From: Ginglymostoma cirratum
Lineage: Eukaryota
Direction of reading: 5' to 3'
Assembly: GCA_024137785.1 (NCBI GenBank)
Contig: JAHRHZ010000002.1
Coordinates: 636,841-700,840, forward strand
Length of the DNA: 64,000 bases
The translations under genes and the position numbers were made by a program. The notes beneath the pieces were generated by a model that was given only the letters and a program-made list of their open reading frames with translations, was not told where the DNA came from and did no database searches. This document shows positions 118-54,567 of this stretch, piece by piece (position 1 is the stretch's first letter; every line of letters starts with the position of its first letter).

Positions 118-471
118 ACCTGTTGTTTCTGTGACAGGCATCGCCAGACTCAACTTTTTTGGGCATCCGTTGTCTCTAAATATTTGGTGGAGGTATTCTT
201 CATTTTGGCGTAGTTCTGGGTTATTGTAATCTGTTTTGCATCGTTTGAACAGTGTGTTTACGCAACTCCGTTTGTCGTTGTTGGGTTGGTTACTGTTGAA
301 ATTTAGGCCTTGATGCGTGCGTGTTGCCTTCCTGTGTACTTTGGTCAGAAATTCCCCGTTGGCCTTGCGTTCTACCGTTACGTCCAGGAATGGGCGCTGT
401 TTGTTCTTTTCTTCTTCTCTGGTGAATTTGATGCCGGGGAAAATGTTGTTTATAAGTTGGTGTTTCTTTCT
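118..471 (-). mobile_element. Penelope/Poseidon-type PLE, RT C-terminal segment (inverted part)
   Basis: Minus frame reads HQLINNIFPGIKFTREEEKNKQRPFLDVTVERKANGEFLTKVHRKATRTHQGLNFNS...KRSCVNTLFKRC, typical of the PLE RT thumb region. Confidence 0.8.
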
Positions 472-1026
472 GGCATCAAAGTAACACGTAATCCAACATC
501 AACCCTACACCAGCTGCTAATAAGAACCAAAAACCCCTTACCCGCTATGGACAGAACAAACGTAATATACAAGATTCCATGCAAGGACTGCGACAGACAT
601 TACATTGGACAGACAGGAAGAAAACTGTCTACGAGAATACATGAACACCAGCTCGCAACAAAAAAAGAAAACACGACCAATGCTCACTCGTCTCCATACA
701 CACAGACAAGGAGAATCACCACTTCGATTGGGACAAGTCAAGATCCTAGGACAAGCCAAACAGAGGCAAGCACGGGAATTTCGAGAGGACTGGTTGTCCA
801 CGAAGAAGGCCATCGATAAAGACGTACAATTAGATCCTATATACACACCACTGCAAAGGAAAACCGGAAATGAGGTAATTAACTCCAAAAGACCCCAGAG
901 TTTAAACAACTAGCGGGAAATCACAACAACGCTTCATCGGAGGCTGTACTGCTGATGTTACCCAGCAAGGTAATTAAACGTCTGCAATCTAACGAAGCAG
1001 CAGGGCGAGCGAACCAACCACAGCCA
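472..1026 (+). mobile_element. Penelope/Poseidon-type PLE, GIY-YIG endonuclease (frameshifted) plus 3' tail with degenerate hammerhead (945-986)
   Basis: NVIYKIPCKDCDRHYIGQTGRKLSTRIHEH; frameshifts near 660-730; tail TGTA-CTGCTGA-T-GTTACC..GGTAAT-TAAACGTC-TGCA. Confidence 0.85.
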
Positions 1027-1039
1027 AAAAAAAGCTTTG

Positions 1040-2330
1040 TTTTTTTTCAATGGGGTAAGTTGTTCTTTAGCCTATTTGGTAGATGTTTTTAAAGCAATAA
1101 CAAAGAAGGTTGATGATGTTATGCTGTTGATTCAGTGTATATGGACATTAAAAGGTATTGGATATAATGGTGCACGCAGACAGCGGAACAAATTTATAGT
1201 TGATGGAACAGGAGGGACAGCAGCAATATGCATAAGGAACTGGCTCTGACACACCGTACACAGAATAGTGGTGAACGGATGTTTTACAATCTGGAGGACA
1301 TATTGTAGAGGAATTCCACAGGGATCTTTTCTTTCCAGATGTACCACTTAATCCTTGTTGAAGAGGGAACAGCTGAACATTTGCGAATTAAATAAAATTT
1401 GGAAAATGTTTAGAACTGTGAGGAGAATAGTGTAGCACTTCGCAAAGACAGAGGCAAATTGGGAAATGAGACGGAAATGGCAGGCGCGGTTCAGTCTGGA
1501 AAAAGCTGTGATGTCTCACTTGTTTCTGGCACGAATGAGAGTTCATGCTAAATAAAGTGCCCAAGTCGAAAAGTGGGTATGGGAACAGAGGGATCTGTGT
1601 ATGCATGGGCATCCATCGTTAAATGTGGCAGGACAGGTTGATAGACTGATTGACAGGTTGATTCACCAGAGTTAAGAAAAAGTTAAGTCTGACGACGTTT
1701 GCTGAAGCAGTAATTGTAAGGAAAGTTTATAGTAACATTAAAATATTTGGGAAAATCTGTTATGTCATTGGTTAATAGAGTATACAACGGCCAACAATTT
1801 ATTAATAGAGACGTTGAGCCTCAAAGCAACGAGGTCTTGTTGAATTTGTACAAGACAGGAGTTTGGCTTGAGCAAGAATATTGCATCCACCTCTGAGAGT
1901 CACATTTTTGGAAGAACGTGATGGCCTTGGAGAGAGGTTGATGGAAACCGTTACAGGAATTTAGAAACTTCATTTGTTGAAGTACTTTGGCGAGATTAGT
2001 TCCCTGAAACAAGCGAAGACTGGGAGGAAATTTGACAGAGTTTATATGGTCATGAGAAACATGGCCCTGGACAGGGAAAGGATTCAGAATGGCAGAATAC
2101 ATACAGAATTTGCGGTTATTAGCAGAAACATAATACAGGATAAGAAAAAAATACTGTAATATGTCAAGAGGTTCCTGTCTAGAATGCTCTGCCTCAGGGT
2201 ATAGGAGGTAAGTGAAATAGAAGTATTCAAAAGAGAGAAATGTAGCAGGTTTGCTGCCCTTTCAGAGTAACCATGATGAGACGTGATGAGCCGAATGGGC
2301 GCCTCTTGCGATGAACCACTTCTGTGAGCA
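1040..2330 (+). mobile_element. Degenerate CR1 LINE, RT 3' half and tail
   Basis: Remnants colinear with the CR1 ORF2s at 47650-48900 and 60770-61770; tail GCCGAATGG..CCTCT. Confidence 0.7.
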
Positions 2331-2761
2331 CATTCTCACACACAGGGCGTTGAAAATGTCAACCTCTCCAGCGATGAATTTGAAAATGTTCAGGCGCGTC
2401 TAGAGTTTTCAGAACTGTGAAGGAGACATTATGCAAATTGAAGACATTAATGAATAAAGGACAGCATCGGGGGAAATGCTCGTCAGGGAGATCTGTGTGA
2501 ATTGCAGGAGATGGGAACGGGCTGAATGTCCAACTAGTGGATTCATGGTATTTATGTTCTGGATCCTGACCTTCTGTTAGTTGTCAGTGGAAGGATCAGT
2601 CTGAAAATAACGGATAATAATAGAAAATAACAAACACAATAGAAACCGGTACCCGCACTAAGGCGTAGAGGATCACGGGGGAATGTAGATCTCCAGAGAT
2701 TCGGTTTCAAATCTGTCAGAATGTCTTTCTTATCAAAACCTTTAGATATAAATCAGACACA

Positions 2762-2905
2762 GTAAGAACTGCCGATTCTGGAGTCTGAGATAACACAGTA
2801 TGGAGCTGGAGGAACACAGCGGGTCCCGACTCGAAACGTCAGCTTTCCTGTTCTTCTGATGCTGCCTGGCCTGCTCTGTTCCTCCAGCTCCACACTGTGT
2901 TATCT
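2762..2905. mobile_element. Fold-back copy of the PLE-tail element
   Basis: AGATAACACAGTATGGAGCTGGAGGAACACAGC ... GCTCTGTTCCTCCAGCTCCACACTGTGTTATCT inverted arms around a GGGTCCCGACTCGAAACGTC ribozyme remnant. Confidence 0.75.
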
Positions 2906-3770
2906 TTAGATATGGATGGTATTTCTGAGAACATTTGCTGCTTTCAAAAATGTCAATTTCACTCGGAAGGCTTTTTCTTTGTTTTTCACAAATGTGTCAA
3001 AAACCACAAACTCCAGTTTGTTTTTTTTACCAATTTAATTCCAATTAGTAGGGTAAATTCTCCCGCCAAAAGTCATGAAGGTTCAACCCAGTAACAGTTC
3101 AAACTCCCAGATTGAAATGGGAGAATCTCCATCACTGAGAGCAGTGTAAATCCATGTTGGAGAATTTTTGGAATGCCGTTGATTTAACAGCGGTTAACCG
3201 TGTCACAAAACAAGGAAAATTCAGTTTAAGGTATAAGCGTGAAGATACAATTAGATACAATCCGTGCATTGTTGGACACAAATACGATCAAGTTTACTCT
3301 AATCTTCGCGCTGTTGCATTGGAAACTCTCGCACACTCAATTTGGATGTAATGAGTTAGACACAAACAAAACACGAAGGGAATTGGCTGCTTGTCCTAAT
3401 CACGAGAAGTAATGCCAATTCTGCAGTTGCTGTCTGATCCGAAGGGAGATTTTTCTCAATTATACACAACAGTTTTCTCTCATTCCTCGTCTCACAGTCA
3501 GGTGGAGCGCAGTATCCAGGGAAAAGAAACAGCATCACTTCTCGGTCACAATGAGAGTTCCTCTAGACTCCTACCCATTACCGGGTGATCGCCAATTGTG
3601 CAGGCTGTAATGACATATTATCCGATTAAAGCAGCGTATGGTTTCCTTGGTCAGTGATCATATTCAGTTGCTAACTGTATAAATCAGGGATGACTGTGTT
3701 TCTGTTCTGATCTCGGACACTCTGTTTCAATGTGTCTTTTTCTCTCACTATCCCGAAAGCAGAAATCCAC

Positions 3771-4139: not shown

Positions 4140-4490
4140 TTTTCTTTATTCTGCATCGCCAGCTGACCAAAATTTATTGCCCAACCTTAGTTGGTCCTCG
4201 AGAATTTAGTAGTGAGCTGCCTTCTTGAACCGCCACAGTCCATGTGCCAGCAGTAGACCCACAATGCTATTAGGGTGGGAATTCTAAGATTTTAACTAAG
4301 CAGACACTGAACGAACGGTAATATATTCCCAAATCAGCATGGCGAGCGGATTGGAGGCGAAATTGCAGTGGTCATGTTCCCACGTATCAGCTGCAATTGC
4401 CCTTCTAGATGACGATGCTGATGTGTTGAAAATATTCTGTACAAGGAAGTTTGGTGAAATTCAGTAGTGCGACGTTTAGATAGTACACAA
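4140..4490 (-). mobile_element. 3' end of the APE-RT LINE family also seen at 43535-44800
   Basis: ATTTATTGCCCA..GTGAGCTGCCTTCTTGAACCGC..CAGTCCATGTG..CCCACAATGCT colinear with 43575-43900. Confidence 0.7.
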
Positions 4491-13786: not shown

Positions 13787-14298
13787 GCAAAGTGGCATAG
13801 TGGTAAGCACTGCTGCTTTGCAGAACCAGGTTCATTTGTAGAGATAGCAAGAACTGCAGACGCTGGAATCAGAGACAACACAGCATGGAGCTGGAGGAAC
13901 ACACAGGGTAGGCAGCATCAGAGGAGCAGGAAAGTTGACGTTTCAGGTCTGAAGAAGGTTCCCAACCCAAAACATAAACTTTCCTGTTCCTCCGATACTG
14001 CCTAACCTGCTGAGGTCCTCCAGCTCCACATTGTGTTGTCTCTGACTCCAGTATCTGCAGTTCTTGCTATCTCTGAGTGAGTTATAAACCCACTGAGAAG
14101 CCTCTTCCAAGGTTACCCACCCTGAAAACCCATTTCTGAAGAAGGGTCCCAACCCAAAACGTCAACTTACCTGCTCCTCTGATGCAGGTTCAATTGTAAG
14201 CTTTTGGGGACTGCCTCTGTGCAGTCTGTGTGCATTTGCTTTTGTTTGCTCCCACAGTCCAAGGATGTGTAGGTCATATGGCTTGGCCAGGGATTCTA
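13787..14298 (+). mobile_element. Degenerate HE1-type SINE interrupted by PLE-tail elements
   Basis: A box TGGCATAGTGG, body CCCACAGTCCAAGGATGTG, tail GGGATTCTATG; split at its B box with duplication CAGGTTCA(T/A)TTGTA at 13827-13840 and 14185-14198. Confidence 0.7.
13841..14184. mobile_element. Fold-back PLE-tail element (13841-14073) plus a second partial copy (14131-14184)
   Basis: GAGATAGCAAGAACTGCAGA...TCTGCAGTTCTTGCTATCTC inverted arms of ~100 bp; centres carry CTGAAGAAGG..ACCCAAAAC ribozyme remnants. Confidence 0.85.
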
Positions 14299-15589: not shown

Positions 15590-18048
15590 CCACATCAAGG
15601 GATACACTTCTGACCAAGGAAGGTCAATTATGAAGCAGCTAAAGTTGGCTAGGCCGAGGGTACTATCCTGAGGAATTCCTGCAGGAGCTGAGATGACTGA
15701 CTGCCAATAACCAAATCATCTTCCTGCATGCCAGGTATGACTCCAACGAGCAGAGCATTTTCCCCCAATTCTTATTGGCTCCTTGATGCCACACAGTCAA
15801 ACGTGGCATTGATGTCAAAGACAGTCACTCTCACCTTAATTCTGGAATTCAGATCTTTGGCCCATATTTTGACCCTATGCTGTAATGGTGTCAGGAGATG
15901 AGTGGCCCTGGCAGAACCCAAACTGGACATCACTAAGCAGATTATTGCTAAGCAGGTGCTGCATGGTTATACAGTTGTTGACATCTTCCATCACTTTACT
16001 GATGATTGAGAGCAGACTGGTGGGATAGTAATTCACTGGATTACATTTGTCCTACTTTTCGTGTACAGGACACATCTGGGCAACTTTCCACATTGTTGGG
16101 TGGATGCCAGCATTGTAACTGGAAGAGCTTGGCGAGGGGACCAGCAAGTTCTGAAACACAAGTCTTCAGCACTATTGTCAGAGTGAATTCGGGGCCCCTG
16201 GACCTTGCAGTATCCCCTGCCTCCAATGAACAGAATGAACCAAATTGGTTGAAGACTGGTATTTGTCATGCTCGAACCACTGGAGGAGACCTAGATGGAT
16301 CATCCGCTTGGCACCAGTGGCTGAAGATTGCTGCCAAGTGTTTCAGCCTTACCTAATGCACTGATGTACTATGCTCTTCCATCATTAAGGATTTGGATAT
16401 TTGTAGAGACTCCTCCTCCAGTGGTTGTTCAACTGTCCACCACAATTCATGACTCGATATGACAGGACTGCAGAGCTTTCATGTGATCCATTGGTAGGGG
16501 GATCACTTAGCTCCAACAATCACTTGATACTTACCCTGCTTGGCACATAAATAGTCCTGTTTGATCAGTTTACCAGCTTGACAACTCATTTTTAGGTCTG
16601 CATCGTGCTGCTATTGCATACTTTCCTGCACTCTCCCTTCCAAACAGTATACCACCTCTGCTGGGCCTGTTCCTGCCGGTGGTAGAGGAAATATCCAGGT
16701 ATGGTGATTGTTGTTTGGGATATTGTCTGTCAGATATGATTCCATGAATATGGCTATGTTAATCTGTTACTTGAATACTCTGGTAGACCGCTCTCTCACT
16801 TTTGGCACCAGACACCAAATGCTAGTAAAGAGGAGTTTGCAGGATCAACAGGGCAGGGTTGATCCCCAGGCTTGATGGTAATGGCTGAATGAGGGATCTG
16901 CAAGGCCATGAGATCAAACATTGCGCTTGAGTAAAATTCTGTTGCTGTTGATGGTCCATGGTGCCTAACAGAGTTATTAGACCTGTTTGAAGTCTGTCCC
17001 ATTTAACATGGCGATGGTGCCACACACAGCACAATGGAGGGTATTCTCAATGTGAAGGTGGGATCATCGCCACAAAAACTGTGCAGTGGTCACTCTTACT
17101 GGTATTGTCATGGATGTATCTGCATACACATTTGTAAGGAAGAGGTCAAGTATATTTTTCCCTCCTTGGTTCACTCAACACATGTTACACACCCAGTTCT
17201 GGCAGTTATGTCATTTAGGGCCTGACCAGCTCGATCAATAATGCTACTGCTGAGTCACACTTGTTTGTTGACATTGACAGCCCCCTCATTTTTCCCTTTG
17301 CCACCCTCATTTCTTCCTCCAAATGTTGTTCAACATGGAGGACTACTGATTCATCAGATGAGGGAGGACTGAAAATATTAAGCAGCAGGAGGTTTCCTTG
17401 CCCATGTTTAACCTAAAACTGTGAAATTTCATAGGGTCAGGTGGCAAGGTTGAGGCCTCCCAGAGAAATTCCCTTCCAAGTATACCACTGTGCCATTGCC
17501 TCTGTTGGGCCTGTCCTGCCGGTGGTAAAGGAAATATCCAGGTATGGTGATTGTGGTGTTTGGGACATTGTCTGTCAGCTATGATTTCATCAATATGGCT
17601 ATGTTAATCTGTTGCTTGAATAGTCTGGTAGACAGCTCTCCCACTTTTGGCTTGTAAAGAGGAGTTTGCTGGATCAACAGAGCTGTTTCTGCCATTGATC
17701 TAGGTTCGTGCCAGGTGAGCCATCTGGTTTCACTTTTTTGGAGACTTCATTGTGATTGATACAACTGAGTAGCTTGCTAGGCCATTTCAGAGGGCAACTG
17801 TGAATCAGCTGTGGGTCTGGAATCACATGTAGGCCAGACCAGGTAAGGAAGGCAAATTTCCTTCCCTGAAGGACATCAGTGAGCTTTCCAACAATCGACA
17901 GTGGTCTCATAGTCATCAGTAGATTCTTAATTCCAGATTTCTTCTATTGAATTCAAATTCTGCTGTGGCATTATTCAAAGCCGGGTCTGTACAATATTAA
18001 CCGAGTTTCTGGATTAACAATCTAGTGCTAATACCACTAAGTCATCAA
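15590..18048 (-). mobile_element. Degenerate APE-RT non-LTR retrotransposon, 5' portion, with a tRNA-like head
   Basis: Minus: A box TGACTTAGTGG (18034-18044), ~300-bp leader, APE N-terminus KVGELSTRLFKQQ..LTDNVPNTTITIPGY..HRQDRPNRG, RT remnants (QHLLSNNLLSD.QFGF) near 15800-15960. Confidence 0.75.
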
Positions 18049-18699: not shown

Positions 18700-19905
18700 C
18701 TAAGTGTAAACAACCTCTCCTTCAACTTCTCTCATTTTCTTCAGATCAAAATGCCTCAGGTATGCATGCATCTTTGTGGGGGACGTGGAACATTTCCTGT
18801 TCCAATCCTACTCCCGTGCCTTCACACAACTCTTTCTCCATTACATCAATGATATCATCCTTCTCTCATCCAGAACTGGAAAAATTCACCAACTTTGCTT
18901 CCATTTTTCACCCTGCTCTCATGTTCACCTGGTCCATCTCGGACTCCTGCCATCCCTCCTTGACATCCATTTCCACTTCTGGGGAAGAGGCTGAGCACCA
19001 ATATACACTACAAACCCAACTCCCACAGTTACCTCGACTATACATTTTCATGCCCTCCATAGAAGATGCCTCAGAAATGTCTACCTTTTTCCTCAAATCT
19101 AAGATTCCACATCACCGTAGTTGACAGGGCCGCAGCAGTATCCCATCCAATTCCCATTTTTTTTTCTATTCACTCCCTGAACACTGATAGGGTCACGCTG
19201 GTCTTCAGTTTCCACTCTACTAGCATTCACGTCCCTCGGATCATAAGTCACCATTTCTGCCACGTCCAACAAAATGCTACCACTATCCTCTATCCGGACT
19301 TGTCAGCTTTCCACAGGGACTGTTCCCTCCAGGACACATTGGTCCACTACTCCTCCACTCGTAACATCCCTCCACACCCCCATGGCACCTTCCCATGCTA
19401 TCACAAAAGGTATATCACCTTGCCATTTACTTCCTCCCTCCTCACGCTCAAGGCCCCAGGCGTACCTTAAAGAAAAAGCAGCAACTTGCCTGCACTTCTA
19501 CAATCTAGTCATTTGTATTTGCTGTTCACAGCATTGTTTCCCCCACAGTGGGGAGATAAAACACAATCTGGGCAATGATTTGTGCAACAATGTTTTTGCC
19601 TGCAAAAATGACCCCGGGCTTCTGTATGCCTGCTACTTCAAATAACCGAGATAACAAGCGTGGGGCTGGATGAACACAGCAGGTCAAGCAGCATCATAGG
19701 AGCAGGAGAACTTGATGTTTCGGACCTAGACCCCTCATCAGAAAACTTCAAATAACCGTTGTGTTCTCTGATCAACATCTCTGCCTCAGGCTTGCTACAG
19801 TAAGCCAGTCGGTTCAGCACAATCTGAAAGAACAGCATTCTGTTTTCATCTTGGGGATGTGGCAGCCTTCAGGGCTCAACATTCAGTTCAATACTTTTGG
19901 GGCCT
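18700..19905 (+). mobile_element. Old Neptune-type PLE remnant (RT C-terminus and GIY-YIG)
   Basis: LFLHYINDI, FHPALMFTWSISD, AFHRDCSLQDTLVH, GTFPC, NLVICICCSQ..GE; colinear with 55800-57010. Confidence 0.8.
19649..19744 (-). mobile_element. 96-bp PLE-tail/hammerhead insertion with 14-bp TSD
   Basis: ACTTCAAATAACCG at 19635-19648 and 19745-19758; minus strand CTGATGAGGGGTCTAGGTCCGAAACATCAAG. Confidence 0.9.
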
Positions 19906-21249: not shown

Positions 21250-22700
21250 AACACTCTGTTGTATGCGAGTGGTATCAGTTACGCCAGCATTTCTTTCTCC
21301 TGAAAAAGGAATATTCAGCAGACTCCTTGAAACGCTGCATTCCATGTAGAGGACACTGAAGATTGCACAATCAACATTCCATTTCTGCTCTTATGATGGA
21401 AACAAGGTCACTGATGAAGCAGCTGAAGATGGACCCTAGGTCTGTAGCCTAAGGAACTCCTGCAGAAGTGTAATTGAGTTGAGAAGATGGACATCAAACA
21501 ACCACAATCACCATTTTTTGTACCAGGTATGACTCTGACCAGCAGAGAAATTTCACCAAATCCCATTGATTTCCAGGCTCCTTGATGATATCAAAGCCAT
21601 ATTTGGCTGAGCATAGCAGAGACAGCCAGGACTGCAGTAGTCCTAGTTTCTGACCTGCTTCTGTAACCACTGTGCTTGGGTGGTGACTACCATTAACCAG
21701 AAACTTAATTGGAATCACCAGGATTTTGATAGTGGGGCATTCAGTGAAAGTAACATCTTTGAATGTCAAGGACAGTGGTAAGATCGTTTCATGTTGGAAA
21801 TGGTCACTACCCAACATTTGTGCAGTGCAAATGTTGCTTGCCATTGTATGCCCAAGCCAGGATATTGTCCAGATCTTATGGTATTTGGACATGAACTTCT
21901 TCAGTATTTGAAAAATTGAAAATGATGCTGAATATCATACAATCAATCGATCACAATCCTTACTTCAAACCTTACGAGGAAGGGAAGATCATTGATGATG
22001 CTGCAGAACATGACTGCACCAAGGACACTACCCTGAAGATCTCCTGCAGAAATATCCTGGAGCTGATCTGACTGATCTCCAACAACCACAACCATCTTCC
22101 TCTGTGACAGGCATGATTCCAATCAGTGGAGGGCTTGTCCCACAATACTCATTGACTCCCACTGATTCCAGTACAGTTGGGTTCCTTGATGCCACACTCC
22201 ATCAAATGCAGCCTTGATGTCCAGGTTGTCAATCTCAACCCACCTCTGGTATTCCGTTCTTTTGCCCATATTTGCACCAAAGTTCTCATGAAGTCAAGAG
22301 TTGAGTGGCTCTAGTGGAACCCAAAGTACGCATTACTGAGCAGGTTATTTCTAAGCAAGTGCTTGGTAGTACCGTTGATGACACTGTTCAACACTTCAAT
22401 GCTGGAATAAACTGATGGAACAATAGGATAAACTTTGTCCTGATTTGTGTGTACAGAATATAGCAGGGAAATTTTCAACATTGTCAGGTCAATGATAGTG
22501 GTGTAGCTGCACTGAACTTGTACAAGAAACAGCAAGTATTGGAGCATAAGTCTTCAGCACTATTACTAGAATCTTATCAAGGCTCACAGACTTGGTGGTA
22601 TCCAGTGATGCCAAATGTCTGTCGGTACCATGTGGATTGATTCAAATTGCCTGAAGACTGGAATCTGTGATGCTGGAGACCTCTGAAGGAGGCAAATGCT
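21250..22700 (-). mobile_element. Rearranged fragments of the APE-RT LINE family
   Basis: KHLLRNNLLSNAYFGF and FKDVTFTECPTIKIL; RT segment present twice (21395-21590, 21985-22200). Confidence 0.7.
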
Positions 22701-24417: not shown

Positions 24418-24970
24418 CAGGCAATGTTATGGTAATATCACTGGACCAGTGGTCCAAAGTGTCAGGATATGGTCTGGGGAAATGGACTGAAATCCCACCA
24501 TGGCAGTTTGTGGGTTTAGAATTTAATGTCTACCGTTGGATTATAAAGCTAGTCACAGTAATAAAGCTGCCATAGATTTACCAGGCCATAGGGCGACTCT
24601 CGTTAGAGTGTGACCACTGGAGGTGACCTGAGGGTTACCACACCTCAGTTGAAGGGAGAGGTTGAGAAGGAGAGTCATTCATAGTAACTTCACCTGGTGC
24701 AGGAATTGAACCCTGCTGTTGGCACTGCTCTGCATTACAAACGTGCCATCCAGCCAACTTTAACCAATCCACATTTGCAGTCAGACTGGCAATGATGGAA
24801 ATATATCTGGATCACTAATGGAAATCTGTTGTTACTAGCTGGTCTGGGCTACACATGACACCAGACTCACTGCAATGTAGTTGACTTTTAAGGGAGCTGA
24901 AGAGGAATGAGGATGGACAACAAATACAGGCCATTCCTATGACACCCACATCCCATCAAGAGAAAAATAG
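24418..24970 (+). mobile_element. Degenerate copy of the tRNA-head bipartite SINE, interrupted by another SINE
   Basis: Head ATGGTAATATCACTGGAC..GAAATCCCACCATGGCAG; body GGTCTGGGCTACACATGAC..GTTGACT; tail CACCCACATCCCAT. Confidence 0.6.
24574..24772 (-). mobile_element. tRNA-derived SINE of a different family, nested
   Basis: Minus: A-box-like GGTTAAAGTTGG, B box GGTTCAATTCC (24706-24716). Confidence 0.55.
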
Positions 24971-25209
24971 AACAGTGTCTGGACAGTAACCTTCAAAAAT
25001 TCATCATTGGCTGGGAAACATTTTGAGATCGCTACTGGTCATGAAAGATGCTATATAATGTAATACTGTTTTTCATTTCTACATTCCTCTAATATTCACT
25101 TACCTTATAACAGTCCCACCGTTTATTCATAACATTTGTAAAGTTCGCTTACAGAACAGCTCAAATTAGACATCATCTAAACTATAAGACAGGTTATAAG
25201 TAGCATAAG

Positions 25210-25900
25210 CAGCAAGTGATAGACAGAGCTAAGCAATTGGACAACCAATGGGTTGACTACGCTCTGCAGTCTTGTCTAACCCAGTCATCATAGGTGGTGA
25301 ACAATGAAACAACTCACTGATAGAGGCTCCACAAATATGTTCATCCTCAATGATGGAAGCACCCAACACATTAGTGCAAAAGCAAAGGCTGAAGCATTGA
25401 CAAAAATCTTCAGCCAGAAGTGCCAAGTGGATGATCTATCTCGACCTCCTCCAGTGGTCCCCAGCATCACAAGTACCAGGCTTCAGTCAATTTGATTCTC
25501 TCTATGTGATATGAAGAAACGGTTGGAGGCAGTGGATGATAAAATGTCTATGGGCCCTAACAACCATTCTATCAATAATGCTATAGACTTGTGCTCCAGC
25601 GCTTGCCACGCCCCTCACCAAGACGTTCCAGTGCAATTACGGCATTGGCATATATCTGTCAATGTGGAAAACTGTCCAAGTATGTTCAGTGCAGAAAAAG
25701 CAGAAAAAAAATCCAACGCAGCCAACTGCCACCCCGTTAGACTCCCCTTAATCATTAGCAAAATGGTGGAAGGTATCATCAACAGTGCTATCAACCAGCC
25801 CGCACTCAATAAACCGCTGAGTGATGCCCAGTATGGGCTCTGCCAGGCCACTCAGTGTCTGTGTTTATTACAGTCTTGATTTAAACATTGGAAAAGAGCT
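25210..25900 (+). mobile_element. Internal fragment of the APE-RT LINE family
   Basis: ILNDGSTQHISAKAKAEALTKIFSQKCQVDD; AANCHPVRLPLIISKMVEGIINSAI..LSDAQYG. Confidence 0.8.
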
Positions 25901-27484
25901 GAAGTGGATCACAAGTCTCAATTATTAACCTCCAGCACCTCCCAAGACCCTGACCTGCTGTGACAGAAATTCTGTTCCGACATGCAATCGCCAGCTAACA
26001 TTTAAGCATATTGCTGCTTTTTGAAAGCTGAAAGTTACTGTACCTTTAAAATGTACCTAGGTTATTGCACTGTCAAAGAGAGAGACCGGTCTTTACAACA
26101 TATCAGGAAATGGATCAGTAACACAATCAATTAATCCAGGTTATTCTTATCCAAAATATTGAAGAAAAACAACTCTTTTCACATTAGATAACGTTTCTTT
26201 CACAACAAGTTCATAACAGGATACATCTGTCTTAAACTTTGCATTTTTTGTCACAGTTTGATGATATCTGACACACATCCTTTCACACCTGATGTGAACA
26301 TTTGCATACTGCAACTTAAATTTGCACACAAACTATTACCGAGTACTTGTTATTAAGAATCAGGAAGGAAAATAAAAACTTAAAACATACATATTTGAGT
26401 CTCATCAACAGGTCTACTCCCCATAACATTCTTCCATCAACACTAATCTCGCTCAGTTGCCAGTGCGCAGACTCTGAACAGGAGCAGAAGAAATAAGAAG
26501 ATTTAATCAAGGGTTTACAAAATTAAGAAGTGCCTTGATGGAGTCAATTGTTTTTCCCTATCTGAGGAGTCAGTGAAGGTAACAAATGATTTTAAGTGGC
26601 GACTAAGTGGGGAGAGAGATGAGGAGGAATTTTTGTCAAGTTGTTTGAACAGAGTGAGGAAGGCGCAAATTAATTCTGATTTTTTAAAGGGGAAATGGGA
26701 CCAATGTTTGATCCTGTGGCAGAGACCTGTTGCTCAGGTTGCAGGGTTAGCAGGATGAGTCTGCCAGGGAACTGGATTCTGCAACAGGTCAGAGACCTTG
26801 AGTAGAACAAGAGGTTCCTAGAAGATTCATTTTTCAACATCACTGCAATACCAGAGAAACAAAGGAACCAGACAAATTCACACTGAATAGTTAATACTGG
26901 AATTGGTCACTGGACAGCAGTTGGACAAGAGGATTGGGAGAAACCATATTTCTCTGAGCAAGGATGAGTCCGAGGGGCTGAATGGCTTAGTTGGGCTTTT
27001 CAATATATAAGGTTCTCTTGTTATTGGGAAGTGAAGCAATGAATAGTGAGCTGCTTCAGGAGAAAAGGAGGTGACTCGAGGAGGAAGAAGGAAGTTTCAC
27101 TCTCTACCTGATCTGACTCTGGCCTGCTCAACGCTGACAAAATTAAACCATTCCTTCCACAAAACAAACAAATCAATTAAGGCCCTGTGCATTAAATGAA
27201 ACTGAATGATTCGACACCAGAGTTATTGACCTCACTACTTGGAATTGTTGTCTTTTCCAGACTGGGTCACAAACCTGGGTTTTTCCAGAGTGAAAAATAT
27301 GTCAAGTGAGAAATCAATGACTATATTCAGTCCAGTCTCTCCCCAGTACGACAGGCCCATAGTTCATGCTGGTTTGGTGCATGTTCAGCCATAAAAATTC
27401 CAGAGTGTGACTTCATACCTCAGGCCAAAGAAAAAGATTCAGGGTGATTCCCCTGAATCAGTAGCTGTGAAAAGGAAACATATC

Positions 27485-30480: not shown

Positions 30481-30611
30481 GTCTCATTACACATTTGTGG
30501 CTAAGAAGCTATACGTCCGTTAGAGTGCTGAAATAGCTGCATCAAAGGGCAAAACAGTGCATAATTGACAGCTCTGTCTGTCTGAGCAATTTTATCAATT
30601 ATGCAGACATA

Positions 30612-30802
30612 ATAGGTACTGCAGATGCTGGAGAATCCGAGATAACAAGGTGTGGAGCTGGATGAACATAGCAGGCAAAGCAGCATCATAGGAGCAGGAA
30701 AGCTTGACGTTTCAGACCTAGACTCTAGGCCCGAAACGTCAAGCTTTCCTGCTCCTATGATGCTTCTTCGCCTGTGTTCATCCAGCTCCACACCTTGTTA
30801 TC
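30612..30802. mobile_element. Fold-back PLE-tail element in MHC intron 4
   Basis: GATAACAAGGTGTGGAGCTGGATGAACA..AAGCTTGACGTTTC / GAAACGTCAAGCTT..TGTTCATCCAGCTCCACACCTTGTTATC; centre GACCTAGACTCTAGGCCC. Confidence 0.9.
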
Positions 30803-31332
30803 AATTACATAATTTGTTTTGTATAAATAAAGAGGTTTCAATACTAAGAGTTTCTGCTTTCCAAAGGTCTGAATCCTTGCCATTTTTTTTAAATCAAGCT
30901 GCAGTGAAGGGAGTTTTTATAAATCAGTGATTGACTGCTTTATAAAACCTACACTAACACATATGGTTGCCACATTGCTGGTCAGATACAGAGGTTATAG
31001 TAAATGAATGGGCCATAGTATTACCACAGATTTGCATTGTGACATGTAGGGTCAGTGTGACAGTGGGGCACAGTTTAGAATTGGCAGCGTGTGAGAAATC
31101 TTTTAACCTCATATTTCAAAGTTGACACTGAAACCCCAGTCCCTCAAACAGACACTGGTCCCACAGTCTCTGACACACACCATACGCCAAAGACCCTGAC
31201 ACAGGCACATTTATTCCCCCCCACAGTCCCTGACAGACACTCTCACACTATCTTCCGCAGTCCTTGACACACACTGTTTCTCACAGTCACCCATATATAT
31301 ATTCTATCCCCAGCAGTCACTATTGCTCTTAC

Positions 31333-32659: not shown

Positions 32660-33580
32660 AAGGTAACATAACAATGCTGTCTGAAAAAGAGGCAGAATCC
32701 AGAGAGCTATAGCCTTATATCAGTCACAGGCAAAATACTGAAACCTGTTATTAGGATCACGGTAACAGGATAATAATCTGATTACAGAGTTAACATGGAT
32801 TTATCGTAGGGACATAATGTTTGACCAATCTATTTCAGCGTTTCAATGACATAATGAATATGATAAATAATGGGAGAGACAATGCCCTCTAGTTTTGGAC
32901 TCCCCTACCCTGGGGAAAAGACCTTGATGATTCACTCCATCCATTCGCCTTATGATTTTATAAACATCTATAACGTCACCCCTCAGGCTCTGTTAGTATA
33001 TAGTATTTGAATTTCAGATCAGTTTTGATAAGGTGCTAGATAAAAGGTTATTCCAGAAAATAAGGATTCATGGGATTCAGGACTGATTAATGGACAAAAT
33101 GCAGAGAGTCAGGTTAAATAGGTCATATTCAGATTGGCAAGCTGGAACTAGCAAGGACCCTGTAAGGATCAGTACCCAAGTCAGCCCTGAGGACACAGAG
33201 ATAGCAAGAACTGCAGATGCTGGAGTCAGAGTCAACACAGTGTGGAGCTGGAGGAAGATAGCAGGTCAGGCAACATCAGAGCAGCAGTTCGGATGAAAGG
33301 TCCCGACCCAAAACATCGACTCTCCTGCTCCTCTGATGCTGCCTGACCTGCTGTGTTCCTCCAGCTCCGCAGTGTGTTGAGCCTAAGAACATAATGTTGC
33401 TGAGGGATGTAGAAAAGATGTAGGATAGGGCAGTCAGAATACAATGCATACAAGCATTAAATTAGTAGAAAAACAGGAAAAGCAGCATTTTTTTGGAATG
33501 GTGAAGGAGTGAGGAATATTTACAATTGGAGGGATATAGGTATTCCCTGTTTGTCGAATCACAGGATGGTTACGGCATAG
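32660..33580 (+). mobile_element. Old CR1 RT fragments in MHC intron 2
   Basis: HGF..CLTNL, FDKV, QRVRLNRSYSDW remnants, interrupted by younger inserts. Confidence 0.55.
33198..33380. mobile_element. Fold-back PLE-tail element in MHC intron 2
   Basis: TCAACACAGTGTGGAGCTGGAGGAA / TTCCTCCAGCTCCGCAGTGTGTTGA arms; centre TTCGGATGAAAGGTCCCGACCCAAAACATC. Confidence 0.8.
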
Positions 33581-35026: not shown

Positions 35027-35730
35027 CGTCACAGAGTTCCTTGTAAATAAAATCTGACATGAGAGACCAGACTATAAATCCCAATGCAAAAGCCCCTGTA
35101 AATAAACCCTACAACAGACAGTCTCCCGTAAGCAACCGTAACACACACAGCCCCCTGTAAATAAACCCTCGACACACAGTCCCTGTAAATAAACCGTCGA
35201 CACAGAACTCCTTCTAAAATAAACCCAAAAACACAGAGAGCCCTATCATTTTTTTTTTCTTTATTCATTCACGGGATGAGGGTGTCGCTGCCCAGGCAGC
35301 ATTTATTGCCCATCCCAAATTGCCCAGCAGGCAGTTCAGAGTCAACCACATTGCTCAGAGTCTGCAGTCACATGTAGGCCAGACCAGGTAAGGATGCAGT
35401 TTCTTTCCCTAAAGGACATTAGTGAACCAGGTGGGTTTTTCCGACAAGTGACAACAGATTAATGGTCTGTTAATTCCAGATATTTATTGAATTGACATTC
35501 CACCATCGGCCATTGCAGGATTTGAACCCAGGTCCCCAGAACATTATCTGGGTCTCTGGATTGATAGTCCACTGATAATATCACTAGACCATCACCTCCC
35601 CTTATGAATGAACCCCAAAACACAGAGACCCCTTGAAGATAAACAATAAAACGCAGAAGGCCCTGTAAATAAACCCTAAAACGCAAAGGGCCCCGCAAAT
35701 AAACCCCAACACCGAGACACCGTAAATAAG
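35027..35730. repeat. Degenerate ~30-bp minisatellite in MHC intron 1, split by a SINE
   Basis: Recurrent ACAGAG..CCCTGTAAATAAACC units at 35027-35247 and 35602-35730. Confidence 0.75.
35249..35601 (-). mobile_element. Full-length tRNA-head bipartite SINE
   Basis: Minus: GGGGAGGTGATGGTCTAGTG (A box), GGTTCAAATCC (B box), body CCTTACCTGGTCTGGCCTACATGTGAC, tail GGGCAATTTGGGATGGGCAATAAATG..GAATGAATAAAG(A)n. Confidence 0.9.
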
Positions 35731-37511: not shown

Positions 37512-38201
37512 TGAATTGACCTGAGTCTCTGTGGAGGTTTTAAACGACCTCAGTGAAGGGAAAGTTTTCTGGGCTTGGGGCTGTAATTCACTTAATGTTT
37601 GAGGAGATGGGCTGTCCCTCACTCCATCAAACACAAGAAGGCACTTCGAAAATCTGAGTACAAAACTGGGGAAGGGGGAACGAAGAAACTCAGCAGGTCT
37701 GGCAGCGTCTCTGTAGGGAAAACAGTGTTAACGTTTCGAGGCCAAGATGGCTCTTCTGTGGGACTGAAGTGGGCTGTCAAAATGAAGGAGTGGAACAAAC
37801 GATAAAGGTGCCTCAAAGCAAAAGGCAAAGGGTGTGTTTCCTGTGATTGGAAAAGATGTAGATGTGTTTTCTTTCCAGAAATGCAGCCAGACTGAGTTTC
37901 TCCAGAAATTTCTGATTTTTGTTCTGGCAGAGAGTATATGTTTATGGTGGCTGTTAGTAACAGAAAATGTGTAAAAAAAAAAATCCCAAAGAACTGCTGA
38001 TGCTGGAAATCAGGATCTAAAACAGAAACTGCTGGGAAAAGTCTGCAGTTCTGTCTGCGTCTGTGGAGAGAAAACAGAGTTCTGAAGAAGGGTCACTGGA
38101 CTTTGCTTTCTCTCCACAGATGCTACCAGACTAGCTGAAGTTTCCCAGAAATTGTGTCAGCTCTGTTTAGGTTAAACACATGTAAACAAGACATAGGGCT
38201 G

Positions 38202-38324
38202 AGATAACAAGGTGTGGAGCTGGATGAACACAGCAGGCCAAGCAGCATCATAGGAGCAGGAAAGCTTGACGTTTCGGGCCTAGACCCTTCATCAGAAATG
38301 GACATAGGGCAGAAATGGACAGAA
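38202..38324 (-). mobile_element. PLE-tail/hammerhead insertion with 14-bp TSD and stuttered junction
   Basis: AAGACATAGGGCTG at 38188-38201 and 38325-38338. Confidence 0.85.
38264..38299 (-). ncRNA. Minimal hammerhead ribozyme motif
   Basis: ATTT-CTGATGA-A-GGGT(CTAG)GCCC-GAAAC-GTC|AAGC. Confidence 0.7.
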
Positions 38325-41974: not shown

Positions 41975-42070
41975 TTTTCTGATGAAGGGTTTAGGCTCGA
42001 AACGTCAAGTTTTCCTGCTCCTATGATGCTGCTTGACCTGCTGTGTTCATCCAGCCCCATGCTTGTTATC
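41975..42070 (+). mobile_element. PLE-tail element with hammerhead motif (41975-42010)
   Basis: TTTT-CTGATGA-A-GGGT(TTAG)GCTC-GAAAC-GTC|AAGT followed by the standard tail to CTTGTTATC. Confidence 0.85.
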
Positions 42071-42627
42071 ATGGATCCCTCAATTACCATTACAAAACAG
42101 TATCGTTTAGTCATGATCACATTCCAGTTTATCGGACCTGAATGTGCACACATTAATTGCCTTGATTCCTTTATTACAACAGTGACCACATATCAACTTG
42201 AACATTATTCACTGTAACTTGAGTTTTGGTGCCCTGTTAAAGTTGATATGTAAATTCAAATCTCTCTTTCGTATGGAAGGCTTCCTATGAACTGCCATTT
42301 ATTAACCCACTGATAGACAAAGCAGGAGGTGGTGGTGCAGTAGATAGGGTCCTTGTCTCTGAGTCAGAGACTTGATGGTCAGCTCTTGACAACTATGAAG
42401 AAGTAGGGTTTTGGCTGGAAATGTTGACTTTCCAGTTCCTTGGATGCTGTCTGACCTGCTGCGCTTTTCCAGCCTCACACCTGTAGACTCCGATGACTAT
42501 GGATTGACTTCATAACAGGCAACGTGTAAATCCTTGCAATATGCTTATGTTGAGAGGCTGAGTCGATACAATGGAGAGAATTTGCTTTCTGTTCAGGGAG
42601 CTCTGTGAGTCTTTATGGGTGACCTTA

Positions 42628-42977
42628 GGGGAGGTGATGGCCTAGTGGTATTATCGCTGGACTAATTAATCCAGTGACCAGATACATTCTGGGGACCTAG
42701 TCTGAATCCCATCACAGCAGATGGTGGAATTTGAAATCACTAAATACCTGGAATTAAGACTCTAATGATGACCATGTGTCGATTGTCAGGAAAAACCAAT
42801 CTGGTTCAATAATGCCCTTTAGGGAAGGAAACTGCTATCCTTACCTGGTCTGGCTTACATGTGACTCCAGACCCACACAATGTGGTTGACTCTTAACTGC
42901 CTCTGGGCAATTAGGGATGGGCAATAAATGCCGCCTAGCCAGTGACACCGTCATCCTGTGAATTAACTTTTTAAAAA
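42628..42977 (+). mobile_element. Full-length tRNA-head bipartite SINE
   Basis: A box TGGCCTAGTGG 42638-42648; body AGGGAAGGAAACTGCTATCCTTACCTGGTCTGG; tail GGGCAATTAGGGATGGGCAATAAATG. Confidence 0.9.
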
Positions 42978-43534
42978 TACTATATCGATGCTATTCCATA
43001 AAACTCCAGCAAGGTCTGCCACTGCTGTATTAAATGTAATGAAGTCATTTATGCAACAAAGCAATTTTGTCTTTTCAATATGAGAAAGCTGACGAAAATA
43101 AGCACCATTTTAAAATCAATTATAAATGCAAAAACAAGAGAAACTCATTTCAATCTTATAACTATGACTATATTAAACTATTCCAACTGCTTCCCCTGTG
43201 TATGGGACATAACTGAAATAAACTATTAGATGTGATCCCTCCAACAAGATTGAGAGATAAAGGAAAAATAGACATAGAAGGGACAGACTGAGCAGAGAGT
43301 GGTAGCAGCAATTTCCTCTATTCTCTTCCTCCTTCTCCGACCTCTGCTTCCTTCCTTCACTCTCACTATTCCTTACACATTGTCTTGATTTCTACCTATT
43401 CTTTCGCAATCCCCTCTCTGTCTCTTTCGTGCTCTCTATCTCTCCTCCTCCAGCATTACAAAGGTTGAAGGCTTAGAGATTGAATTTAAAATGGTGGACA
43501 TCCTAAAATTTAAAAGTGGAAATTCGATTGAATT

Positions 43535-44800
43535 TTTAAAAAATCATTCATGGGATGTGGACATCAAGATCAAGACCCAGCATTTATAACCCATCTCGAA
43601 CTGCCGTTGAGAAGTTGGTGCTAAACTGCCATCTTGAACCGCTGCAGTCCATGTGTAGGTACACCCACAATGCTGTTAGACATGGAGTTTCAAAATTTTA
43701 TCTCAGCAACACTAAAAGAACAGTAATATATTTCCAAATCAGCATGATGAGTGGCCTGGAGAGAAACCTGTTGGTGGTGACTTTCTCATCTAGCTGCTGC
43801 CCTTGTCCTTTTAGATAGGAGTGACCATGAGTTTGGAGGCTGCTGCCTCAGGATCTTTGGTGAATTTCTGAAGTGTATCTTGTAGATAGTACACAATTAC
43901 TAGTGAGGTCAGTGATGGAAGGATTGCATGTTCGCTGATGTGGTGCCAATCAAGAGGCGAATATTCCATCATACTCCTGACAATACCTCTGATGGTGGAT
44001 AGGCTTCAGACAGTCAGGAGGTGTTTTATTCACTGCAGGATTCCTAACCTCTGTTCTGCTCTTGTAGACACTTTCTTTATAGGGCTGGTCTGGCTTAGTT
44101 CATAGTCAATAATAATCTCCAGGATGTTAGTAATGTGGGATTCAGTTACAGTAACAATATTGAATTAGGGAAATCATTAGATCCTCTTCTTATGGAGAAT
44201 CATTGCTTGTTGCTTGTGTGGTGTGAATATTACTTGCCATTTCTCAGTCTAAGTCTACATATTGTCCAGGTCTTGCTGTATATGGATACCACCTGCCTCA
44301 GTACCTGAATAATCATGAATGTTGCTGAGCATTGTGCATTCATCAGCAAACTTCCCCTCTTCTAAGCTAATAACAGAGGAAAGGTCATTGACAAATCAGC
44401 TGAAGATGGTTGTGCCAAGGACACTACCCTGAGGAACTGTTGCAGAGATGTCCTGGAAGACAGATGATTGACTTTCAACAACCACAAGTATCTTCCTTTG
44501 TGTTAGGTATGGCTCCAAACAACAGTAAGTTTTCCCATGATTCCATTGACTCAAGTTCTGCTAGGGCTCTTTGCACTATACCTGGTCAAATGTGGCTTTG
44601 ATGTTAAGCGCAGTCACTTTAGCCTCACCTCTGGAATTCAGCTCTTTTATCCATGTTTGAACCAAGTCTGTAATGAAATCAGGAGCTGAATGGCCCTGGC
44701 AGAACCCAAACTGGGTGTCACTGAGCAGGTTATTGCTAAGCAGGTGCTGCTTGATAGCACTGCTGATGACACCTTCCATCACTTTACTGTTTATCAAGAG
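43535..44800 (-). mobile_element. APE-RT LINE family, RT and 3' end
   Basis: SKVMEGVISSAIKQHLLSNNLLSDTQFGFCQGHSAPDFITDLVQTW..VTALNIKATFDQV; 3' end CCACATCCCATGAATGA shared with the SINE tail. Confidence 0.85.
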
Positions 44801-44922
44801 TACACTGATTATGGCAGTAATATAATTATGACTATATTAGAGAATTTTAACTCTTTTTTTGTGATTATGTGATACAATTGAAATAAACCATCACACTTAG
44901 GCCTGCAGTTTTCCTGAAATAA

Positions 44923-45792
44923 TTGTTGGCCACAGCATGTAGCTGTATGATGTGGGAGCTGGCTGATCCCATTGTGAATGGCAGCGACCACATCTGCAGC
45001 AAGTGTTGGTTGCTGGAAGAACTCCGGATCAGAATTAATAATCTGGAGTCTGAGCTTCAAACTCTGCGGCACATCCGGGAGGAGAAGAGTTACCTGGACA
45101 CTTTGTTTCAGGAGGCAGTCACACCCAGTAGATTAGGTAATTCAAATTCAATAAGTGTTCAGGGACAACAGGGTATGACTGTAAGTGAGGCAAGTAGGGG
45201 GATTCTGAGTTCAGGAGTGCAGGAGCCGCAGCCCTTGACCTTGTCCAACAGGTATGAGATTCTTGCTCCCTGTACGGATGAGGGAAAGGGCTGTGGACAG
45301 GATGAGCCAGCTGACCACAGCACCATGGTGCAGAAGGCCATTCAAGAGGGGGGAGCAAAAAGACAAGTAGTTGTTATAGGGGATTCTATAATTAGGGGGA
45401 CAGATAGTATCCTATGCAGGCCGGATTGGGAGTCCCGCATGGTGTGTTGCCTGCCCGGTGCCAGGGTGCAGGACATCTCCGACCGGCTTGAAAAGATATT
45501 GGAGCGGGAGGGAGAGGATCCAGTTGTTGTGGTCCACATTGGGACTAACGACATAGGCAAAGGTAGGGTAGAGGACCTGTTCAGGGATTATCAAGCACGA
45601 GGAAGGAAATTGAAGTACAGGTCCTCAAGGGTCACAATCTCCAGATTACTGCCCAAGCCACGTGCCAATTGGCATAGGGATAAGAAAGTTAGGGAAGTAA
45701 ACACGTGGCTAAGGGATTGGTGTGGGAAAGAGGGAGTCCATTTCAGTTTTGGAACCGGGGGGATCTGTACCGTTGGGACGGTCTCCACCTGA
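44923..45792 (+). CDS. CR1 ORF1 (Cys-rich N-terminus, coiled coil, SGNH/GDSL esterase-like domain); frameshifted near the C-terminus
   Basis: CSCMMWE..HICSKC; LEELRIRINNLESEL; VVVIGDSIIRG; CLPGA; HIGTND. Confidence 0.8.
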   Translation: MLATACSCMMWELADPIVNGSDHICSKCWLLEELRIRINNLESELQTLRHIREEKSYLDTLFQEAVTPSRLGNSNSISVQGQQGMTVSEASRGILSSGVQEPQPLTLSNRYEILAPCTDEGKGCGQDEPADHSTMVQKAIQEGGAKRQVVVIGDSIIRGTDSILCRPDWESRMVCCLPGARVQDISDRLEKILEREGEDPVVVVHIGTNDIGKGRVEDLFRDYQARGRKLKYRSSRVTISRLLPKPRANWHRDKKVREVNTWLRDWCGKEGVHFSFGTGGICTVGTVST

Positions 45793-45877
45793 ACCAATCT
45801 GGAACCAGTGTTCTAGCGAAAAGATTAAATAGGGTGGTCAGTAGGACTTCAAACTTCTGAGTTGGGGGGAAGGGAAA

Positions 45878-50295: not shown

Positions 50296-50402
50296 CGAAA
50301 CGTCAAGTTTTCCTGCTCCTATGATGCGGCTTGACCTGCTGTGTTCATCCAGCCCCATGCTTGTTACCTCGGATTCTCCAGCATCTGCAGTACCTTTTAT
50401 CT
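50296..50402 (+). mobile_element. 107-bp PLE-tail insertion with 15-bp TSD
   Basis: CATTTCTAAGAATGA at 50281-50295 and 50403-50417; begins inside the ribozyme at CGAAACGTC. Confidence 0.9.
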
Positions 50403-51219
50403 CATTTCTAAGAATGATGTGTGACCAATAAGTATTTTTATTTCAGTTTGGCGCATTGTGAGCTGATTGGTTTCAATATGTAAATATCTATTGGAAAAGG
50501 TCTTTACTCATTTTACAATGTTTCTGTTTCAATAAATGGTGATGGGGTATGTTTGTACAAAGACAAGACAGCCTGAGGAATTGCTTATGTGTCTCCAGCA
50601 GCAACTGTAATCCATGTGGAATAATCCAGCTGGAACTGGACTTCTACCCACAACCTTGTTCTCTGCTTCAGGGCATTGATGGTTAAAATCCTACTCCAGG
50701 ACTTCAGCACAAAATTTGTGGCTGAAACGCCAGTGCAGTACTGAGGGATGGAAGAAATTACAGAGATAAGGAGGGGTAAGTCCATGGGGGATTTTGAAAA
50801 CAAGCTCAAAAATCTCACTAAAACTAACACTGAGTTTTCATGGGACGAGTGGATTATTCCTTGAATTTTATTTCTGACATATTTTTAGAACTGTCTAAAT
50901 AATAGAATTTTCCTGAGTGACTGAATGAAAGCAAAACAGTCCATCAGCAGTAATAATTGAAGGCAGTCTCTTAAAATGTCCTATCGCATCTGACTCCAAG
51001 GACTTCACCCCTCCCTCACAGCTTCAGGAACGCAGATATAAAGACAATACTGGCACCTATGGCTCCAACTCGTTAACACTTTAAATCAAATCAAACCAAA
51101 CTTTCAGGCCTACAGTTTCAGGAGAAACTCATTCTGTACATAGCCTTGGAGATTATACTACTAGAAACTGAAACTAATAGAATAGAAATATTACAAGTTA
51201 TTTTCACTCGCACTTATAA

Positions 51220-51711: not shown

Positions 51712-51836
51712 GGAAGGAGGGTCCAGACCCGAAACGTCAGCTTTCCTGCTCCTCTGATGCTGCTTGGCCTGCTGTGTTCATCCAGCTCTACACCTTGTTA
51801 TCTTAGATTCTCCAGCATCGGCAGTTCCTACTATCC
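51712..51836 (+). mobile_element. PLE-tail element
   Basis: GGGTCCAGACCCGAAACGTCAGCTTTCCTGCTCC..TTCTCCAGCATC..CTATC. Confidence 0.8.
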
Positions 51837-52489
51837 CTGAATCGAGATACAACTCTTGCTGTGGTCTGTGACATTTATTATATATCTGGAGGGAACCAAA
51901 CTAAGCAAAAACAAATAAAAGCAAAATATGATGTATGTTACAATTAAAAAACAGAAAAACTGCTGGACAAACATTGCAGATCTGGAACTGTCTGAGGAAG
52001 GGTAAACAGCTACAACATTTACAAGACATTTGGAGAGGTATATGGATAGGAAAGGTTTAGACGATATAAGCCAAACACAGGCAAACGGGACTAATCTAGT
52101 TTGGGAAACTTGGTTCAGCATGGACGAGTTAGACTGAAGAGTGTGTTTTTGTGCTGTTTGACCTAACAACTCTATTAGAGAAACAGAGTTCCTATTTTTT
52201 CATTTTTAAAATTATTTTTATTTTATTATCATATTTCTATTCAACATGGAAGCATTCCACACCGAGTAGAATGTTAACCAGGAAATGATCAGTGAGAGTT
52301 GCCCAGGCTGCTGAATTCCCAACTAATTTTAAAAAAGCAACTGGCCTAGTAATGGGCATCTCAGTGAAGAATTATATTCTTCTAGAAACTGCTAAACTCA
52401 TCAACACTGCTATCTTTCCACCTCTTTAACACACACCGAATGTGCACATGAAACAGGAACATGTGTGGGATCGTGTGTTATTGTACGTG

Positions 52490-52815: not shown

Positions 52816-53090
52816 TTTTCAAATTAACAGGATTGTATTAAAATTCTATCCCTGAACATGAAAGAGACTTGGTTTTTAACAGCACAGTTCATAATTTGGT
52901 CAAAGCAACAAAAAACTGCTTCTATTGTTGTATCTGCTTCACGTTTAAAAATATTTTGTAGGCTGAAGTTTGACAACTAGTATTCACAGCTACCTGAGAT
53001 AAAAGGTACTGCAGATGCTGGAGAATCCAAGATAACAGGCATGGGGCTGGATGAACACAGCAGGTCAGGCAGCATCATAGGAACAGGAAA

Positions 53091-53126
53091 ACTTGACGTT
53101 TCGGGCCGAAACCCTTCATCAGAAAT
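53091..53126 (-). ncRNA. Minimal hammerhead ribozyme motif (left arm)
   Basis: ATTT-CTGATGA-A-GGGT(TTCG)GCCC-GAAAC-GTC|AAGT. Confidence 0.75.
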
Positions 53127-54167: not shown

Positions 54168-54567
54168 NNNNNNNNNNNNNNNNNNNNNNNNNNNNNNNNN
54201 NNNNNNNNNNNNNNNNNNNNNNNNNNNNNNNNNNNNNNNNNNNNNNNNNNNNNNNNNNNNNNNNNNNNNNNNNNNNNNNNNNNNNNNNNNNNNNNNNNNN
54301 NNNNNNNNNNNNNNNNNNNNNNNNNNNNNNNNNNNNNNNNNNNNNNNNNNNNNNNNNNNNNNNNNNNNNNNNNNNNNNNNNNNNNNNNNNNNNNNNNNNN
54401 NNNNNNNNNNNNNNNNNNNNNNNNNNNNNNNNNNNNNNNNNNNNNNNNNNNNNNNNNNNNNNNNNNNNNNNNNNNNNNNNNNNNNNNNNNNNNNNNNNNN
54501 NNNNNNNNNNNNNNNNNNNNNNNNNNNNNNNNNNNNNNNNNNNNNNNNNNNNNNNNNNNNNNNNNNN
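54168..54567. other. Assembly gap (400 N)
   Basis: N run. Confidence 1.

Follow-up and report, generated by a model that had tools for sequence, protein, structure and literature searches.

On the prevailing view, Pol II transcribes the non-LTR retrotransposons, and the elements made by Pol III are short and non-coding (PMC10886601). Among retroelements other than SINEs, Cassandra, Helenus, and Ajax (TRIMp3; PMC10886601) share a Pol III promoter with the shark element described here, but they are short, non-coding LTR elements. The SINEs Bov-tA, AfroSINE, and SINE2-1_ACar likewise hold both 5' and 3' parts of a LINE, but in them a separate small-RNA head has been added to a Pol II bipartite LINE, of the RTE or Vingi groups only (PMC5786205). 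In the shark, by contrast, the head already sits on an autonomous element of the CR1 group. In HE1/HER1, a tRNA-headed SINE and a LINE share the tail only, and the head has not been reported on the partner. The pairing of SacSINE1 and CmiSINE with L2-2 is similar in that a tRNA-headed SINE and a LINE have a common tail, and dissimilar in that the tails alone are shared, the text of PMC5499810 reporting no head on the partner LINE.

Closer still are the Zenon elements. Persaeus, a SIDE of Lepidoptera, consists of Zenon 5' and 3' ends and belongs to short elements that arose several times, but it is described as lacking both tRNA similarity and a Pol III promoter (PMC6740152), whereas the shark deletion product is a SINE because it has the promoter boxes. 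ZenoSINE is reported to have a head of unknown origin (PMC6685494). Elasmobranch Zenon elements have been described as lacking ORF1 and ending in poly-A, and the published Zenon-1 elements agree with ours in these respects, in their APE and RT domains, and in a length of about 3.3 kb; the main text of that paper does not contain the word "tRNA", and the paper is not known to discuss the head, terminator avoidance, the missing AUG, or SINE derivatives (PMC13343379). Our literature search found no account of a coding LINE with a Pol III head, although one may exist in subscription journals, Repbase, Dfam, or supplements.

The window, a stretch of 64,000 nucleotides from Ginglymostoma cirratum (contig JAHRHZ010000002.1), holds at 18046-15618, on the minus strand, an old, decayed copy of an abundant LINE from the Zenon family of elasmobranchs, 3.28 kb long, with APE and RT but no ORF1. 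This copy spans consensus positions 10-2363 at 76-77% identity to the consensus and ends at consensus 2363 (window 15618), without a 3' end of its own. Its parts, and the related copies in the window, are as follows.

17973-18046, minus strand: tRNA-like head of the LINE, consensus 1-84; the boxes match in the consensus and the 5' boundary is sharp across copies
18044-18034, minus strand: A box, decayed in the window copy
18026-18010, minus strand: anticodon-arm-like hairpin of the head
17982-17973, minus strand: B box, decayed in the window copy
17788-17972, minus strand: conserved body common to the LINE and the SINEs; SINE-A leaves the LINE at 17788
17750-17787, minus strand: LINE leader absent from SINE-A; its pairing is predicted only
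17786-17768, minus strand: leader hairpin with a 7-nt anticodon-like loop, part of a predicted pseudoknot
17763, minus strand: SINE-B breakpoint in the leader
17753-17751, minus strand: GCT codon, in frame and complementary to the leader loop, mutated in the window copy
16854-17749, minus strand: basic N-terminal extension and APE endonuclease, consensus 332-1286, with stops and frameshifts
16652-16854, minus strand: internal duplication of consensus 408-611 within the window copy
15618-16634, minus strand: linker and first part of the RT, consensus 1296-2363, where the window copy ends
42628-42977, plus strand: SINE-A copy in which consensus 2-293 meets the LINE tail (3219-end) at about 42906
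35249-35602, minus strand: second SINE-A copy, junction at about 35324
43520-44809, minus strand: 5'-truncated copy of the same Zenon LINE, RT and 3' tail
4153-4489, minus strand: 3' fragment of the same Zenon LINE

The original prediction, made from the letters of the window, was that the 5' part of this LINE copy is colinear with two SINEs, and the alignments agree: 18046-17788 (minus strand) matches the SINE at 42628-42977 with 70% identity over 257 columns and that at 35249-35601 with 68% over 247 columns. Its account of a jump to the LINE 3' end stands in part. Both SINEs do leave the LINE after the motif CCCTCTG (17788) and continue into a tail like the LINE 3' end (43520-43610 and about 4150-4200), but those 3' ends belong to other, 5'-truncated copies (44809-43577 and 4489-4153). 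The window LINE copy runs on, as had been described, to the APE core, which starts at about 17668, some 120 bp past the CCCTCTG point. The proposed tRNA-like head with an A box also needs qualification: the boxes are present in the family consensus, but both have decayed in the window copy, ARAGORN calls no tRNA in the window, and one decayed copy (L062) has no tRNA match in Rfam. The tRNA features visible in the head are the two boxes and an anticodon-arm-like hairpin only, and the term "tRNA-like" is applied to the window copy because the boxes of the family consensus match, not because of a tRNA call.

Further fragments of the same LINE lie at 21379-22693 (minus strand) and 25207-25903 (plus strand). 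The window also contains an abundant short repeat of 100-250 bp, partly palindromic and MITE-like (11-106, 13837-14090, 19646-19747, 30601-30803, 33196-33379, 38201-38300, 41976-42076, 50296-50404, 51718-51842, and 52995-53128). A cluster at 53000-57400 consists of direct and inverted segments, 96-100% identical, that carry Penelope-like GIY-YIG frames and surround two N gaps (54168-54567 and 54860-54959); some of it may be an artefact of the assembly.

The head belongs to the LINE itself. With the window stretch as the query, the head-APE junction was crossed by 40 of 40 scored candidates (of 9,253), and with a younger copy as the query again by 40 of 40 scored matches. Of the 40 loci fetched at 5.5 kb, 27 align from the head to the poly-A tail; upstream of the head, flanks are unrelated between copies, and the 5' boundary is sharp, with copies starting at the first bases of the head. 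An APE-only query, used to avoid selecting for the head, returned 30 loci, eight of them already in the earlier junction search: 19 reach base 32 or earlier, nine end inside the head or body, and two end at 326 and 341, so that 28 carry head or body upstream. No other 5' UTR and no ORF1 was seen at these 30 loci, 11 of which are shortened. The suggestion that the tRNA-like head is part of the coding element, a single-ORF LINE with A and B boxes, is thus borne out by the junction counts and the APE-anchored loci, and the predicted lack of ORF1 by these same loci and by the single frame of the consensus.

That consensus, built from 40 copies, is 3,281 nt long with a short A tail. It has an A box at 12-22, a B box at 76-84, the body to 293, one APE-RT frame of 977 open codons, and a 53-nt 3' UTR. 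The first in-frame Met is codon 171, inside the APE, and no AUG precedes the endonuclease. Pfam finds APE and RVT_1 on copies, and an A tail is present at all 15 LINE 3' ends classed. The fetched copies are all dead, the best being 94% identical to the consensus. Consistent target-site duplications were rejected, 13 of 27 full-length copies having given only shared words of 6-8 nt that are not flush with both ends.

Judged by the near-identity of its first 400 nt and by its length relative to published Zenon-1 consensuses, the LINE is elasmobranch Zenon (CR1-Zenon). The consensuses of five shark and ray species in PMC13343379 (RhiTyp_Zenon-1, CarCar_Zenon-1, ScyCan_Zenon-1, SquAca_Zenon-1, and HypSab_Zenon-1) start with the head, and ours differs from RhiTyp_Zenon-1 at two positions in the first 400 nt, by eye, with lengths of 3291 and 3293. 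Table S3 of that paper gives three intact copies out of 612 for HypSab_Zenon-1. The family is therefore known and its published consensuses already hold the head; the architecture is surprising and unremarked. Searches for headed relatives outside sharks and rays gave no exact motif in viral or metagenome contigs and no viral relative, and no head similarity in 80 metagenome loci, which are distant relatives. Among known SINE domains, the motifs were not found in supplements of PMC7245038, save one chance match inside a CR1, or of PMC11481361; Meta and UCON3 were rejected as the SINE body, their sequences being unlike it by eye.

A life cycle can be proposed for this architecture. Pol III would start at base 1 from the internal boxes and continue for 3.3 kb, until it meets a T-run in the flank. 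Translation of this uncapped RNA would need no AUG, a small tRNA-mimicking pseudoknot (consensus 295-331) being the most likely starting point, and the LINE protein would copy its own RNA by target-primed reverse transcription that begins at the shared tail. Template jumps across the middle would yield head-plus-tail copies, that is, ready-made SINEs, two of which became families. Taken whole, namely a 3.3-kb coding RNA made by Pol III, cap-free translation from a cellular tRNA-mimicking pseudoknot of the IGR-IRES kind, SINEs by a single deletion, and the leader as the source of the conserved SINE body, this chain is doubtful, and its parts differ in strength.

The weakest step is the IRES-like start at the leader pseudoknot, which we propose tentatively. 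Just past the SINE-A breakpoint lies a hairpin with a 7-nt anticodon-type loop, the sole one of its pattern in the consensus, and 15 nt beyond it the APE-RT frame has a GCT codon, which is complementary to the loop AGC. In the published consensuses of five species, the hairpin is conserved together with the four complementary bases, while neighboring bases vary. The hairpin is nearly invariant, with no compensatory change seen; in the young consensus the core stem of the predicted pseudoknot has only 4 bp, with four loop-codon pairs. The closest analog is PKI of the dicistrovirus IGR IRES, where an anticodon-like loop pairs with a downstream codon and sets a non-AUG frame, as is predicted here (PMC4132737 for the IRES). 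No sign of PKII or PKIII was seen in the Zenon leader, and one decayed copy, compared with Rfam at a threshold of E 10, matched no IRES.

It is also possible, although we consider it unlikely, that translation starts at consensus 347, in a short AUG frame of about 35 codons that overlaps the beginning of the APE in a different frame, and that the main frame is reached by reinitiation or frameshift, with no IRES-like fold. Its ATG is present in all five published species. AUG-independent reinitiation at ORF2 is known from LINEs, which counts for this reading. The distance from GCT to the next landmark bears on both readings: in the 51 copies matched of 142 it is 16 nt in 38, 19 nt in six, and other in seven, older and younger LINE consensuses differ after GCT by one 3-nt indel, and the spacer is 19 nt in three further published species. 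This frame-keeping indel lies upstream of the ATG, which speaks against a start there. SquAca_Zenon-1, with 18 nt by count rather than 16 or 19, favors the short frame, since with this spacer the ATG further down would share the frame of the GCT, barring an error in the consensus or compensation past the visible 400 nt; a Squalus-type old subfamily bearing on the question was looked for and not recovered. Against the short frame, too, three non-CpG subfamily changes before the APE core are all replacements in it and two are silent in the main frame (by eye), and the main frame is there R/K-rich, like the N-termini of homologs.

For the SINEs, an origin by deletion from the LINE is probable. 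SINE-A equals consensus 1-293 plus 3219-end, colinear with the 5' and 3' parts of the LINE; SINE-B, which is older, equals 1-318 plus 3215-end; A and B boxes are present in the SINEs. SINE-A heads are 92-93% identical to LINE heads and SINE-B heads 84-88%, so the bipartite model of Kojima 2018, with a head of separate origin, does not describe a SINE whose head matches the LINE 5' end this closely. Three of 30 LINE-junction loci carry one-off head-tail deletions (382 to 3104, 332 to about 3220, and 912 to 3086), and this, with the head-plus-tail structure, makes the predicted birth of the SINE by internal deletion of the LINE likely. Large internal deletions are common in headed copies (e.g., L163, L164, L184, L236, and L242), from which we infer frequent template jumps. 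A very old SINE of this family, built of head, body, and tail, lies at window 24430-24950 (plus strand); about 300 bp of other sequence separate its head from its body.

In the reverse direction, a headless Zenon would have received head and body from an older tRNA SINE through template switching, that SINE would be the ancestor of the present ones (A from B by a small deletion), and recombination would have kept the heads alike. This reading is compatible with Pol III transcription, but we regard it as rather improbable. The head is missing from the start of the hagfish and coelacanth Zenon consensuses of PMC13343379, and the SIDE derived from a butterfly Zenon is described without a Pol III promoter (PMC6740152), so the head was gained at some time. 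The LINE head itself probably came from a SINE or tRNA long ago. The greater age of SINE-B, the single deletion that would turn SINE-B into SINE-A, and the frequency of SINE-B junctions in contigs of other organisms favor the same reading. It is countered by the head states, SINE-A sharing a shorter head with the younger LINEs, to which it is 92-93% identical, and the SINE-B consensus having the longer state of the published SquAca_Zenon, and by fresh deletions that join head to tail at new breakpoints. In a tree of 67 heads (16 SINE-A and 35 other LINE rows by choice, with 14 of 25 SINE-B and two of five very old LINE rows retained on coverage), a single SINE clade is also rejected, weakly (p-AU 0.038, bootstrap unsettled, key branch 92/70, long branches).

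The composition of the sense strand of the consensus bears on the polymerase. Of its 664 T, none stands in a TTTT, and TTT occurs twice, versus 49 AAA, 46 CCC, and 40 GGG; synonymous shuffles expect 11.4 +/- 2.7 TTT, and 0 of 2000 were as low, whereas the absence of TTTT alone is not significant under such shuffles (p 0.165). Since every fetched copy is dead, these counts were made on the consensus; in single decayed copies the averages are 9.2 TTT and 0.74 TTTT (n=27). The partial Pol III terminators given in PMC3141230 (T3VT2, T2VT3, T3VT, TVT3, and T2VT2) all hold four T in five nt. Windows of 5 nt with at least four T number zero on the sense strand of the 3,281-nt consensus and 83 on the opposite strand, against a first-order Markov expectation of 11.9, with one of 500 simulations at zero. 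The original prediction had proposed a check for depletion of TTTT terminators on the sense strand, and the consensus has none. Two CR1 copies in the window (23% T), which served as T-run controls, have 37 and 51 such windows; one, at 44923-48835 (plus strand), is nearly intact, with an esterase (GDSL) ORF1 and an APE-RT ORF2, and the other, at 58871-61793 (plus strand), is a second young CR1-type APE-RT element with one frame break. Among metagenome loci, 76 of 80 have an APE/RT ORF of at least 250 codons; none of these lacks TTTT, and their lowest TTT rate is 6.3 per kb versus 0.7, these controls being distant, with identities of about 40% at most, and for the most part richer in T. Phe makes up 1.7% of the LINE protein, below all 87 homologs longer than 850 aa among the 120 matches listed; the distant homologs P0042, P0045, P0053, P0064, and P0003 are also low in Phe (2.1-2.5%). 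Splice-acceptor avoidance was rejected as the cause of the T depletion, eight-base pyrimidine tracts being not depleted (15 versus 9.1 expected), and a T-run ahead of the A tail was rejected as a built-in terminator, being found at only two of 55 3' ends. The leader is covered by contigs of four runs, which cannot show start, strand, or level.

Because its sense strand avoids Pol III terminators, the Zenon LINE is probably transcribed by Pol III, and the head is likely the LINE's own A/B-box start, from which Pol III would transcribe the element whole. An alternative that we consider improbable is that the head is a captured SINE 5' end riding along, that the LINE is made by Pol II, through its own start or host read-through, and that the T-run avoidance is otherwise caused, for instance by escape from U-rich RNA surveillance. 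The assignment of non-LTR elements to Pol II and the weak processivity of Pol III (PMC10886601) are in its favor, as is the failure of tRNA calls on the head. ORF2 of the CR1 at 44923-48835 likewise has fewer TTTT than shuffled (2 versus 7.4), yet the TTT of this CR1 are normal and it has 37 four-of-five T windows. The avoidance in Zenon, moreover, is one-stranded, concerns T only, covers all four-of-five T windows, and spares pyrimidine tracts, while copies begin at the first bases of the head and the boxes are kept in five species, all of which argues against this alternative.

That the head-APE junction arose by chance adjacency, or by recombination of a SINE and a LINE, at one locus is vanishingly unlikely: exact 26-mer counts, which are lower bounds in so decayed a family, are 445 for the LINE junction, 6892 for that of SINE-A, 64 for that of SINE-B, and 0 for control patterns, and with the two sets of 40 scored matches and the APE-only loci this genome-wide count refutes a junction unique to the locus, the outcome that the original prediction had named as fatal to it.

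In Zenon, a LINE that encodes a copying enzyme is, as its sequence suggests, likely made by the polymerase that usually produces only short non-coding RNAs, and the common SINE of this genome is likely a shortened version of that LINE. If true, the division between Pol II and Pol III elements would fall to a naturally occurring Pol III element of 3.3 kb that codes for protein, and a vertebrate genome would offer a testable case of cap-independent, AUG-free translation. A LINE with the head and body of its SINE would be what Kojima 2018 lacked; with both already on the LINE, the birth of a SINE would need only one deletion.
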